Source: Spizellomyces punctatus DAOM BR117
Lineage: Eukaryota
Length of the DNA: 64,000 nucleotides
NCBI GenBank assembly: GCA_000182565.2
Contig: KQ257450.1
Direction: 5' to 3' (one strand)
Shown: piece after piece, positions 41,130 to 56,639 of the stretch
Position numbering within the stretch: the first letter of the stretch is position 1
Layout of the letters: the number at the start of each line of letters is the position of its first letter
The notes under the pieces: model-generated
What the model saw: only the letters and a program-made list of their open reading frames with translations
Databases searched by the model: none
What the model was told of the DNA's origin: nothing
Position numbers and translations under genes: made by a program

Positions 41130-41326
41130 ATTTGCTCACAGAGTAAGGTGCCCTGCAAAGACAACTGTGAAGCGAGATTTGGCCGAGCTACGAGTGGGAC
41201 CGCAGTGGTGTGTATGCTTGTTAATTGATTGATTCCCAATCTGACTGGAAGCCATCGAAAGCGTTGTCGAATCCTGGTTTGAGATTGATAAAAAATCTCA
41301 AAAAGTTCTCTGGTCGACCAAGTAAC

Positions 41327-41399
41327 AGCCCGATGCGGGGGTCGAACCCGCAACCTTGAGGTTAAGAGCCTCACGCTCTGCCGATTGAGCTAACCGGGC
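41327..41399 (-). tRNA. tRNA-Lys(CTT)
   Basis: Reverse complement GCCCGGTTAGCTCAATCGGCAGAGCGTGAGGCTCTTAACCTCAAGGTTGCGGGTTCGACCCCCGCATCGGGC folds as a cloverleaf with anticodon CTT; T-run terminator follows. Confidence 0.97.
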
Positions 41400-41513
41400 T
41401 TCATGGAAAGACAGGGGTAAATAGATCTTGTGACTGTAAGCCACGATTCCTCCAAGTGATGATGTCAAAGGCCGATCTGGCGCAAGTTGCTGGCCCTGTC
41501 TCCCTCCGACCAC

Positions 41514-50493: not shown

Positions 50494-51270
50494 ATGGCCC
50501 ACGCCCCTACCAACCCGTTGATCGCCCCCGGTGTTCACCGGTACTCGCGTTCCCAGGCCTACGCCAAGAAGGCCTTGTTCAAGAAGGCTAAGCAGGTTGC
50601 CCCCGCAAAGGCCGCTGCCCCTGCTACCACAAAGACCGTCCAGGTCGGTGGAGCAAAGAACAACCAGACCCGTGAAGTGCCTCTCGTCAAGGCCCCACGC
50701 TTCTACGCCGCTGAAGATGCGCCTGTCCCCAAGAAGTCTCGCAAGGCCCCTCGCCCCGTCAGCCTCCGTGCGTCCATCACCCCTGGTACCGTTCTCATTG
50801 TCCTATCTGGAAAGTACCGTGGAAAGCGTGTTGTATTCCTGAAGCAGCTCGAGTCTGGTCTTCTTCTTGTGACTGGTCCCCACAAGGTTAACGGCGTACC
50901 CATCCGTCGTGTCAACCAGGCCTACGTCATTGCCACCTCCACCAAAATCGATATCTCTGGTGTGAACACTGAGAAGTTCACCGATGCTTACTTCAAGCGT
51001 GACAAGGTGGAGAAGAAGAAGGCAACTGAAGAGGCTTTATTCGAGGCTGGCCAGGTTTGTTACAATCTAGTGTTCCTTACTTTATTTTGCCACTGACATT
51101 TCTGTTTACTTTTACAGAAGAAGCCCGTTGACGCCTCCCGTGTTCAGGACCAACGGGAAGTGGACAAGGCGATCCTTGCCACCCTTAAGAAGGACCGCAT
51201 CCTTCGCGGTTACCTCAACGCTTCCTTTGCCCTTAGCCGAGGTCAATTCCCTCACTTGATGAAGTTCTAA
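50494..51270 (+). CDS. RPL6: 60S ribosomal protein L6 (eL6), 1 intron
   Basis: [64 protein letters not shown]. Confidence 0.97.
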
Positions 51271-51600
51271 GGAGTAGTTGTGGTAATTGTGGGTTGGGAT
51301 TGTGGTTGGTCAAGTGTGGACTGTATATGATTGTTCTTGAGGATGGCCGGAATATAGGAAGCATAAAAAACGCAATGTCTGTCTGCTTGTACTGTGCAGA
51401 AATTTGACACTATGCCTGCTGGCGTAGATAGATGGGGGACAGGACGTCCCCATTCCGATTCATCAGAACATCGTGCATCGCTTAAACAATGGTGATTAAT
51501 GAGAGCAGTTACGACTGAATCCATGAAATATGTTTTAGATAATAACGGTGTCGCTTTCTCTGCAATCCCGAACAAGCCATCCAAATATTGACCCTCTGAC

Positions 51601-52411
51601 TTACAAATCTTCCAATCCTTTCAACGTGGAGTCAAGTTCCTGTTTTACTACTCTATATTTCTCTGTCATCTCCTCTAACCGTTTCTCCAATTCCGTCCGT
51701 TCCGCCTCAGACTGTTTGGTTTTGCGTTCTGCTTGTTCTGTTGTCAGCTCAAGGTTGCGAGTTCTGTACAATTGCCGAGGTCAAATAAGCCTTTCAGCAT
51801 GTTAATGCATTGGAAACAACAACACAACGTACTTTTCGGAAAGCTAGAAGTTACAATGGAAAGTAAAATGGCGTTAATGCATAAGCTCATAATGTGCGCC
51901 ATCGATCTGCTTTGAGTCCCGGCCGGAGAATCCCTTTCTCTTGTCGCTTTCCGAACTCGTTCAAACTGTTTGTTCTCATCATACTTTTGTCTTGGGCATC
52001 CCACCCGATCCCTTAAGAGCCACCTCATCCCCTCATCATTCCAACAAGCGTCTGTTGAAGGTATTTTATCATTGAGCTCACCTCTTCCACGCGCTTCTCA
52101 GCTCTGTCCAAGTTTTCTTGAAGCAAGGTCACTTTGTTGTTGAGACTCTGTACCGTAGTTTCCCGTTTCGCAAGTTCCTCTTTGAGTTGTTTCACCTCCG
52201 CTTCAGCATGTTCAGCTCGAGATTGGCTTTGCTCAGACTCTATTCGGAGTTTCTCGAGTTTCTGTGCGGAGATGATCGGTAAGTCAAACGGTATTCATGT
52301 ATCGTTCGCGAGCAGAAACGCAGCCCATAGGGGATATCGTGCACACAGCAGTTCCTTTTGGATAATTGCTTTACTACTACAAAGTAAACGCACCTCCTTT
52401 ATTTTATCCAT
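51601..52411 (-). CDS. TPM: Fungal tropomyosin; exons 52411-52394, 52261-52082, 51843-51833, 51763-51601, giving 123 aa
   Basis: MDKIKE|KLEKLRIESEQSQSRAEHAEAEVK... and C-terminus ELEKRLEEMTEKYRVVKQELDSTLKGLEDL* resemble Cdc8/Tpm termini; continuous heptad pattern. Confidence 0.88.
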
Positions 52412-52532
52412 GGCGGCTGGGTTTGTGCAAGATGCAGAACAATCCGCACGAGCGCGTCAAGTCATTGGCACTCGATATAAAGTCGAAGCATAATGTAATG
52501 GACATATGATAAGCAGAGCTTTCTCCTTTTAT

Positions 52533-52615
52533 GGCGAGATGGCCGAGTTGGTCTAAGGCGTCAGGTTAAGGCCCTGATCTCTCCGGAGGCGTGGGTTCAA
52601 ATCCCACTCTCGTCA
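52533..52615 (+). tRNA. tRNA-Leu(AAG)
   Basis: GGCGAGATGGCCGAGTTGGTCTAAGGCG TCAGG TTAAGGC CCTGA, long variable arm, GTGGGTTCAAATCCCAC TCTCGTCA. Confidence 0.96.
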
Positions 52616-52748
52616 CTTGCGAAATGCCCAGTTGGATTTTTTACCGGAATAATATGAAAGCACGTGACCGGTCGAAAGCAGGTCATCCTTCAGCATCTTG
52701 CTGGATTTGTTGAATGCTCTCAACCTAGCGTGCCCAGTGGTCATATCC

Positions 52749-54444
52749 ATGCGGTCGAGAGATCAGCAGCTCGACCATTTTACAGAATGGCTACGAGGGA
52801 AAGGATACGACCAACATCGGCTTCAGCTGGCAGAGTTTCCCGAGACCGGGCGGGGTATGATGGCTAAAGAAGCCATTCAGGTATGCGGGCTTTCTCCTAC
52901 AGACTACTTTTATCAGTGTATTGAGTTGAAATTTCAGGTCGGACAGCCTATCGTTGAAATTCCAAGATCGTTGCTTATAACCTGTAAGACACCAGCTGTG
53001 GAAGCGACAGTCAAGAGCTTTTCTGGTGACAGGTACTGTGAACAGCGCCCTTCCGATACTATCTTGTTGTTTGTTAACCGGTGTCGCATTGGTAGTACTT
53101 TGTTATCTGAGCATCAGTCACTTGCGCTCTTTCTCGCACATCAACGGGGTATATTAGGCGAATATCGTCCGTATATTAATTTGCTGCCGACGCATTTCAC
53201 AACGGTTGCCGCATTGATGCCAAAAGAAATATTCAACCACCTTCCGTGGGAGCTGCAAGGTAAACTGCCAGTTCTGCCATCATATCTCATGCATGTTTAT
53301 GCTAAGAGACGCATAAATAGCCATGGCCAGTGCTCAACGTACCCATGTACGGCGGGACTATGCGCGTATCATGGGATTCTGTGACGACTGTAAAGGCAAG
53401 GCGGAATACTCCTCAAAAGACGGTAGTTGCCCCAACTGCTGTACGCGTCCGTCCCTCACGTATACCGATTTCGAATGGGCTTGGTTTGCAGGTACAGGAT
53501 GCAGATAGTATAAGTAAGCACATTACATGTGCATTCTGATGATGATGTGAAATGAGACTAATTATATGGTTTACGGCATCTAGTGAATACGCGATGCATT
53601 ACACTGAATACAACTCAACGGCGTATAACGCATAGTGACACGCCAAAAATCGCCTTGGCCCCGATGCTGGACTTTTTGAATCACACTTCAGAGGCAAAGA
53701 TTCAAGCCGGGTTCGATGCAACAGGGCAGTCATATCGAATCCGAACGCTGATGCCCTATGAACCAGGAGAGCAAGTATTCATCAATTACGGACCTCATGA
53801 CAACAGGTAAAACCAGAAAAGTCTGTGAAATACTGCTTTGGCAGGCTTATTTTTAATCTTTAATTTTTCCTTTGACAGTTTTCTACTAGCAGAATATGGT
53901 TTCGTCTTACGGCACAACCCATATAATCACGTCATCGTTGATCGATACATTGATGAGATCATATTGGAGGGTGAGACTGTGGATAGTCGAAGAGTTGCAA
54001 ATGACATCTTGGACGGACACGGGCTTCGCGGGTGAGTATCAAGCCCGCATAGTACCATCATGCCCAAGGACTTATTCTCTTCTCATACACTGTAGTGACT
54101 ATACACTTCATCTCGATGATGATCCATCTCCACGCCTAACAGCGGCCCTTCGAATTCGCGTCCTTTCTTCCGTTTTAAAGTCGGTCCCGCCGAACGTCGC
54201 AGACATGTGCTGGGAGCCACTCGTACCAGAGCAAGAACGTCGCGTCCAAGACGGGATCCGTTGCGTGTGCGAAGCCGTGTTATTACATGCAGAGCAGGCT
54301 CTTCGCGGCCTTTCGGGGCTCGAAGCCCATAGCAAAGAGTCGCTGGCATTCTCCATGGTGCAGCAAGTATGGAATGACACGGTTGCGATCGTGAAGGGAG
54401 TCATGCAGCGACTTGCCGACAAAGAGGATACGTGTCAGATGTGA
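52749..54444 (+). CDS. SET-domain protein lysine methyltransferase (SETD4/Rkm2-like)
   Basis: FPETGRGMMA; WAWFAVNTRCI; ALAPMLDFLNH; GEQVFINYGPHDN..LLAEYGF. Confidence 0.88.
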
Positions 54445-55096: not shown

Positions 55097-56639
55097 ATGG
55101 CTACTGACTCAAAGTAGGTGAACAATCACAAGCGGTCGTTGAAATTGGGGAGGACGACCGGGTGCTTGGGTTGACCCGATGATCTTGGGTTGTGACGAGA
55201 CTTTGCAATACTAATATCTTTTGGTCAACAAGGAATCCACCCGCTGAAGGGACCTTCACCGATGTGCCCGAAGGTGAAATTGAGGTACGTCCCCGGCTCC
55301 TGCGAAATCGGTTTGAGCAACTGCGAGGGGTTGTGGTAACTAACTAGATCACGTTGATAGTCCAACTGGGACGAGGTTGTCGACAAGTTCGATGACATGA
55401 AGCTTCGGGAGGAGCTTTTGCGTGGTATCTACGCGTATGGGTGAGTTAGCGGTAGAATGAAGATTTTACTGTCATCAAAGTCTTTCTGACCCATTTTACC
55501 TTGTCAGTTTCGAGCGCCCATCCGCCATCCAGCAACGTGCTATTCTCCCCGTGATCAAAGGTCACGATGTGATCGCTCAGGCACAATCCGGTACCGGAAA
55601 GACTGCCACATTCTCCATCTCCATCCTGCAGTCCCTGGACATGTCGAAAAAGGAGTGCCAGGCTCTTATCCTTGCCCCTACTCGAGAACTTGCCCAGCAG
55701 ATCCAGAAGGTACTGATCGCCCTCGGCGACTACATGCAAGTGGAATGCCACGCCTGCATCGGTGGTACCAACGTCCGTGAGGACATGCGTCGGCTTGAGG
55801 CTGGCGTTCATGTTGTCGTCGGAACCCCTGGGCGTGTGTTCGATATGATCAACCGCCGCGCTCTCCGTTCCGACTCTATCAAGATGTTCGTGTTGGACGA
55901 GGCCGATGAAATGTTGTCTCGTGGTTTCAAGGAACAGATCTACGATGTGTTCCAACTTCTTCCTCCGGCCACCCAGGTCGTTCTCCTTTCTGCTACCATG
56001 CCCGGTGATGTCTTGGAAGTTACCAAGCGTTTCATGCGTGACCCCGTCCGTATTCTCGTGAAGCGTGACGAGCTTACCTTGGAAGGTATCAAGCAGTTCT
56101 ACGTAGCTGTGGAAAAGGAAGACTGGAAATTGGACACTCTCTGCGACCTGTACGAAACCGTCACCATCACTCAAGCTGTCATCTTCTGCAACACCCGCAG
56201 GAAGGTCGACTGGCTTACCGAGAAGATGCACGCTCGTGAGTTCACTGTATCTGCAATGGTAAGAGGGAGCAGGTCCATGTTTTCCTTGGTTTATCTTGTT
56301 CTATATTTATCATCCATATGTTAATAGCACGGTGACATGACCCAACAAGAGCGTGACGTTATTATGAAGGAGTTCCGATCTGGATCCTCTCGTGTTTTGA
56401 TTACCACTGACTTACTTGCTCGTGGTATTGATGTGCAACAAGTTTCCCTGGTTATCAACTACGATCTTCCAACCAACCGGGAGAACTACATTCACCGTAT
56501 CGGTCGTGGTGGTCGTTTCGGTCGTAAGGGTGTTGCTATCAACTTTGTAACATCCGACGATGTCCGTATGCTTCGTGATATTGAGCAGTTCTACAACACA
56601 CAAGTGGAAGAAATGCCCATGAACATTGCTGACCTGTGA
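55097..56639 (+). CDS. TIF1: Eukaryotic translation initiation factor 4A (DEAD-box helicase)
   Basis: [52 protein letters not shown]. Confidence 0.97.

Follow-up and report, generated by a model that had tools for sequence, protein, structure and literature searches.

The spizellomycetalean chytrid Spizellomyces punctatus very probably possesses a functional, expressed gene for a tropomyosin of three actin periods, encoded on the minus strand of the window (the whole 64,000-nucleotide stretch of DAOM BR117 DNA analysed here) in four exons of 18, 180, 11 and 163 nt, which together make 372 nt and specify 123 amino acids and a stop codon. The third of these exons is a microexon that is retained in the messenger RNA and sits where the two 161-residue tropomyosin genes of the same genome have an exon of 125 nt, so that the protein is shorter by 38 residues, the length of one actin period.

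Gene structure and splicing

The gene had been proposed, in a sequence-only reading, as an ultra-short tropomyosin whose frame is restored by a microexon. On recomputation the exons listed in Table 1 contribute 6, 60, 4 and 53 residues in one uninterrupted frame, and omission of the microexon in silico shifted the frame and brought a stop after 70 amino acids. Intron 2, given in that reading as 233 nt, was found to be 238 nt long (52081-51844). The microexon is an internal exon of 11 nt with AG and GT flanks that is present in mRNA, as detailed below. Intron 1 was assigned from its GT and AG ends, the zero RNA depth within it and a first exon of 18 nt that both paralogues and the metagenome locus L011 share; its junction, at a local RNA depth of 1-3, is absent from the listed read joints because the library used is 3'-biased.

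Table 1. Features of the 123-residue tropomyosin gene in the window.
Feature	Position	Strand	Remarks
Exon 1, coding part	52394..52411	-	18 nt, codons 1-6; equal length in paralogues L002 and L003 and in L011; RNA depth 2.65 in bin 52391-52461
Intron 1	52262..52393	-	132 nt, GT..AG, phase 0; RNA depth 0 at 52320-52390
Exon 2	52082..52261	-	180 nt, codons 7-66; 85-88% identity to paralogues; RNA depth 4-16
Intron 2	51844..52081	-	238 nt, GT..AG, phase 0; 92 and 105 nt in paralogues
Branch-point-like 10-mer, then pyrimidine tract	51873..51882	-	30-40 nt upstream of microexon acceptor
Microexon	51833..51843	-	11 nt, codons 67-69 and two bases of codon 70; LSEK; TAG before, GTACGT after
Intron 3	51764..51832	-	69 nt, GT..AG, phase 2; position and phase match paralogues (55 and 68 nt)
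Last exon, coding part	51601..51763	-	163 nt including stop, codons 70-123; RNA depth 95-142
3' untranslated region (approximate)	51470..51600	-	end placed from binned depth only

The 10-mer upstream of the microexon acceptor would be suited to a branch-point role. A second copy occurs at 51801-51810 (minus strand) in intron 3, which places one copy on each side of the microexon; no further copy occurs in the 64 kb, and two copies were reached in 2 of 100 shuffles, the pair having been noticed before testing. The paired 10-mer may act as a signal in splicing of the microexon, or may be left over from a local duplication that brought in a new acceptor.

Transcription

Runs X1, X4, X5 and X6 were mapped to 50900-53000, raw RNA reads being present in X5 only and the other three runs being uninformative about how the gene is spliced; X5 bears the same species label and is not necessarily from the same strain. 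About 6 in 100 of the run was read, giving 19,530 reads on 50900-53000 (15,699 of them at least 99% alike), most of which fall on the neighbouring ribosomal protein gene. Since the tropomyosin reads lie on the minus strand and those of the neighbour on the plus strand, the first mate reads the sense strand. The joint between the last exon and exon 2 (51763/52082), which the sequence-only reading had singled out for checking, was crossed by 10 X5 reads from five start places, and in each of the 10 the 11 letters between the two exons equal the reverse complement of the microexon. RNA depth in X5 was 0 in the three bins of 51823-52035, with no reads in intron 2, and no other joint of the tropomyosin gene reached the threshold of at least three reads from at least two start places. 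Neither of the transcripts that would speak against the proposal, one skipping the microexon or one including an extra exon of about 114 nt, occurs among the X5 joints listed, and the gene is expressed. With 10 of 10 reads, other products could still make up as much as about a quarter (95% bound; one library). The earlier description of the gene as constitutively ultra-short is therefore upheld by the junction reads of a single library, for joints of three reads or more, those with fewer falling outside the listing. About 29 reads at 51615-51637, in the last exon, bear the letters of the paralogue on contig C5. Past the stop codon, minus-strand depth fell from 118 (51539-51609) to 34 (51468-51538) and 1.7 (51397-51467).

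The tropomyosin gene is convergent with a ribosomal protein L6e gene on the plus strand (50494-51425), the intron of which (51052-51114) is spliced and which has a poly(A) site at 51375; a minor, longer L6e 3' end overlaps the 3' end of the tropomyosin gene at about 51468-51538. A tRNA-Leu(AAG) gene lies on the opposite strand at 52533-52616 (plus), about 120 bases upstream of the tropomyosin start codon, and a tRNA-Lys(CTT) gene at 41326-41400. An open frame at 55461-56324 (plus) resembles a DEAD-box helicase of the eIF4A kind.

Paralogues and purifying selection

Three tropomyosin loci were found in the genome by searches with the two exons, with the relative P0032 and with PF00261; a fourth gene was not found by these searches, the remaining matches being weak (E 7.7e-5 or worse). 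The 161-residue paralogue that the sequence-only reading had proposed to look for is thus present twice, on contigs C3 and C5, each gene having exons of 18, 180, 125 and 163 nt, a layout shared by L011. The translation of the C5 paralogue is identical to P0004 (SPPG_03666), and the nearest named proteins come from S. punctatus and Geranomyces variabilis. Intron positions are equal between the 123-residue gene and the 161-residue paralogues. The microexon sits where these have exon 3, ends in equal phase and aligns with the last 11 nt of that exon; as 125 - 11 = 114 nt, or 38 amino acids, it stands for the final 11 nt of exon 3. Together with the spliced reads, the exact 114-nt excess of exon 3 in both paralogues bears out the proposal of a gene-encoded protein one 38-residue period shorter than the 161-residue form. 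When single 38-residue deletions were compared against the five nearest 161-residue proteins, the best lay after residue 67, and placements at 65-68 came within 4 score units of it.

Across the 123 columns that they share, identity of the protein to its paralogues is 81% and 79%, and the first 16 and last 14 residues, the conserved overlap ends, are identical across all three copies. Against the paralogues, pN is 0.12-0.13 and pS 0.78-0.92 (saturated), and since pN is far below saturated pS, the 123-residue gene is an old duplicate under purifying selection; pN between the two 161-residue paralogues is 0.07, the short gene having drifted about twice as far. Exon 3 of the C5 paralogue (L003:1284-1308) has an AG that is followed by exactly 11 nt of exon. 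This AG might be a weak acceptor, use of which would yield a 123-residue product; the C3 paralogue has no AG-N11-GT.

Family membership and coiled coil

Scanned singly, exon 2 and the last exon have PF00261 as top match (E 3.6e-9 and 1.6e-8, respectively), at 36.8 and 34.7 bits, each alone below the cut-off of 38.6; P0004, 79% identical to the 123-residue protein over shared columns, passes at 85 bits. In the available text of two studies, 38 residues correspond to one actin period and fungal tropomyosins contain a stammer (PMC3805550; PMC11626781), which in the accessible part of the structural work is tied to bending and twisting (PMC11626781). The length of the new protein follows the tropomyosin rule of a whole number of periods of about 38 residues, 123 being 161 - 38. 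It contains no proline and shows a heptad repeat from end to end, with offset 0 in both halves and hydrophobic residues at 0.84 and then 0.65 of a/d positions, whereas the 161-residue paralogues have offset 0 (0.79 hydrophobic a/d) followed by offset 3 (0.82 and 0.88). As 38 = 5 x 7 + 3, loss of 38 residues removes the central stammer and leaves one register, so that the two marks of a four-period form, 161 residues and a central stammer, are replaced here by 123 residues with no register shift. The microexon residue Leu67 occupies a core d position. The lower value in the C-terminal half, against 0.82-0.88 in the paralogues, reflects polar core residues (Thr71, Thr78, Thr85, Ser88 and Arg92), and the dimer could therefore be weakened. 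The AlphaFold model of P0032, a relative of the window protein, is a single helix over residues 2-122 (pLDDT 96.8).

Distribution of 123-residue tropomyosins

Two of the 42 proteins recovered with a chytrid profile have 123 residues, namely P0032 from Geranomyces michiganensis and P0030 from Cladochytrium tenue. Both build as 66+4+53, with LTEK and STAQ, respectively, where the window gene has LSEK. Among the best 150 of 464 cluster representatives, seven have 123 residues and five of these look whole; P0032, P0030, P0091, P0107 and P0149 are 123 amino acids long and lie above the Pfam Tropomyosin cut-off, as gene predictions known from protein sequence without exon structure. A breakpoint near residue 66-67 is common to P0032 and P0030, and P0091 is compatible with it (48-67). 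P0107 and P0149 are nearest to basidiomycete proteins and lack a segment after residue 42-43 or so; their shortening is a separate event. Four further chytrid records of 114-139 residues (P0009, P0034, P0033 and P0023) have odd sequence near the breakpoint junction and may be mis-modelled short or long genes. All four resume at one shared motif nine residues into the last exon, and 114 + 9 = 123; the lineage may thus have another small exon, or an acceptor that the models overlooked.

Trees were built on 119 shared columns without P0107 and P0149, which have another breakpoint, and without fragments. A single origin of all chytrid short forms was rejected with six rows (AU p 9e-5) and was borderline with the three clean 123-residue rows (AU p 0.045), two of which are long branches, in a test that also omitted P0009, P0034 and P0033. 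A clade of the window gene and P0032 was compatible with the data (AU p 0.17 and 0.19). The evidence leans to more than one origin for the short chytrid forms, weakly so because of the 119 columns and the long branches.

The metagenome scan gave four loci among the 598 pattern matches listed, none of them a 123-residue gene. At L010:454-1053, an intronless AT-rich contig encodes a 199-residue chytrid-like tropomyosin of five periods, outside the budding yeasts; P0047 (357 amino acids) and P0070 (248 amino acids) carry several repeated units in the tropomyosin middle region. None of the 174 retrieved database proteins, a set in which the genome's own records may be clustered or absent, shares an exact 20-mer with the window product. 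This suggests that the public gene model is missing or wrong, and that gene predictors would miss such a gene, as the sequence-only reading had expected, is plausible.

Origin of the short gene

The gene arose, more probably than not, from a duplicate of a 161-residue gene (18/180/125/163) in whose exon 3 a new 3' splice site appeared, 114 nt from the exon start. Following the duplication, use of the new acceptor would have turned the first 114 nt of the exon into intron, where they would decay, and the last 11 nt would have persisted as the microexon, preserving the junction from phase 0 to phase 2. Intron 2 is about as long as one intron of the paralogues (92-105 nt) with 114-140 nt added. 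Its purine-rich, exon-like middle (0.66 vs 0.42-0.51 in six other introns) may be what decay has left of the 5' portion of the former exon 3. A search for the lost 114 nt within intron 2 gave nothing above chance, the local DNA alignment being equalled by 148 and 698 of 1000 shuffles and the best of the translated frames by 39 of 300; an anchored global alignment, made post hoc, was equalled by 64 and 53 of 1000 shuffles and is suggestive only. No remnant is expected because synonymous sites are saturated.

A different history, to which we would give a modest chance, is that the ancestral gene produced both the 161- and the 123-residue form by using two acceptors separated by 114 nt, and that duplicates each fixed one form, several times in chytrids. 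The breakpoint shared by 123-residue proteins that fail to group in the trees would follow from it, with or without the three uncertain short models, as would the AG at the matching place in exon 3 of the C5 paralogue. That AG, however, forms part of a GAG in a purine-rich exon and lacks a pyrimidine tract, and besides its absence from C3 the AG-N11-GT arrangement is missing at the end of exon 3 in L011, where one unrelated match falls early in intron 2.

Predicted function

The protein is likely to act as an acetylated, parallel two-chain coiled coil, polymerised head to tail with three actin subunits under each dimer, and to form a filament class of its own. A Met-Asp start is a substrate for N-terminal acetylation, and the 123-residue protein would be acetylated accordingly at its own Met-Asp start. 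Its chains would then form a parallel coiled coil in a single unbroken heptad register from which the stammer is absent, and the dimers would be linked by the same end sequences that the paralogues carry. Each dimer would span three actin subunits and not four, with more overlap junctions per filament length, and the outcome would be a separate class of actin-tropomyosin filament. This reading, including the predicted binding to actin, builds on what is known of the tropomyosin family and on the reported behaviour of three-period tropomyosin on actin.

It is also conceivable, if doubtful, that the 123-residue protein does not coat filaments alone and serves as a three-subunit spacer among 161-residue dimers, tuning flexibility or junction density. 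The identity of both overlap ends with those of the paralogues, the presence of C5 paralogue reads in the same library and the more polar core are all in keeping with such mixed cables, but plain conservation also predicts identical ends, and a bulk library cannot show co-expression within one cell.

Two further readings are very improbable. A hidden exon or upstream acceptor that also gives 161 residues might be sought in an intron 2 that is long for the gene family and has a purine-rich middle, but, as the sequence-only reading had noted of phase-0 exons, nothing there restores that length, since all eight upstream in-frame AGs run into stops, none of 16 open AG..GT/GC phase-0 candidate exons is 114 nt long or tropomyosin-like, and intron depth is zero; the locus thus appears to have no open route to 161 amino acids. 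A decaying duplicate (a transcribed pseudogene) or an assembly artefact could be argued from the higher pN to the paralogues than between them, but would sit badly with the open frame, the loss of exactly one period, a pN much smaller than pS, precise splicing, agreement between reads and DNA, and 123-residue counterparts in other chytrids.

Returning to a dedicated three-period gene with its own filaments, a wider and rather speculative extension, more likely wrong than right by a good distance, is that chytrids repeatedly and independently made stammer-less genes of this kind from duplicates by a 114-nt shift of a 3' splice site, to serve a distinct actin network. If this were true, tropomyosin length, in steps of 38 residues from 123 to 199 and beyond, would be a sorting code in early-diverging fungi, and candidate networks would include the short filaments of crawling zoospores or those of cleavage during zoospore formation.

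Comparison with known tropomyosins

The accessible text of a survey of 27 fungal species describes a 161-residue tropomyosin for every one of them and, for two yeasts, a form of 199 residues, the difference being one actin period (PMC3805550). The chytrid actin system is animal-like in part, and the main text of the survey reporting this names tropomyosin once, as conserved (10.1101/2020.06.12.142943). A 2026 modelling preprint compares forms of 284, 248 and 161 amino acids, and its available part does not mention 123 (10.64898/2026.07.06.736648). A literature search covering few subscription journals returned no paper on a natural 123-residue tropomyosin and, beyond the chytrid actin survey, nothing on chytrid tropomyosin genes.

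The 123-residue protein has ends and a core homologous to those of the four-period tropomyosins Schizosaccharomyces pombe Cdc8 (PDB 8PUZ, 9FF9), Saccharomyces cerevisiae Tpm2 and chytrid SPPG_03666. Its last exon matches residues 111-161 of Cdc8 (the C-terminal 51; PDB 8PUZ; E 2e-6), with E117, R121 and E138 kept and D131 replaced by Thr, the paralogues having Ser or Thr at this position. It differs from the four-period forms in lacking residues 67-104 or thereabouts (one period) and the central stammer, and in a predicted span of three actin subunits, not four. P0032 and P0030, of the same length, are 53-55% identical to it. As far as the available text of PMC3805550 goes, S. cerevisiae Tpm1 (199 amino acids, five periods) likewise shows a difference of one 38-residue period between paralogous genes. 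The Tpm1 change is a gain after codon 35, whereas the window gene has lost its period after codon 66, where two exons meet, and was left with a microexon.

Maytum et al. 2008 (J Biol Chem 283:1902) are said to have engineered an ultra-short 123-residue deletion of yeast Tpm1, and Neurospora crassa reportedly makes a 123-residue tropomyosin as an alternative splice product of a 161-residue gene. By these accounts, both equal the window protein in length and in predicted three-subunit span, the yeast form being artificial and the Neurospora form alternatively spliced, whereas the window gene is separate and can make the short form only: it does not share the Neurospora-type capacity for a 161-residue product, having no predicted open route to it and no intron 2 reads. 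The length of 123 residues is thus already known, and the novelty lies in a gene dedicated to a three-period form, free of the stammer and assembled through a microexon. Exons this small cause tropomyosin genes to be missed or distorted in annotations, and several chytrid records of 114-139 residues look mis-modelled near the microexon junction. Standing beside two 161-residue genes with identical ends, the 123-residue gene isolates the number of periods per dimer and the stammer in one cell, and so makes it possible to test directly whether the sorting of tropomyosins among actin networks depends on length alone.
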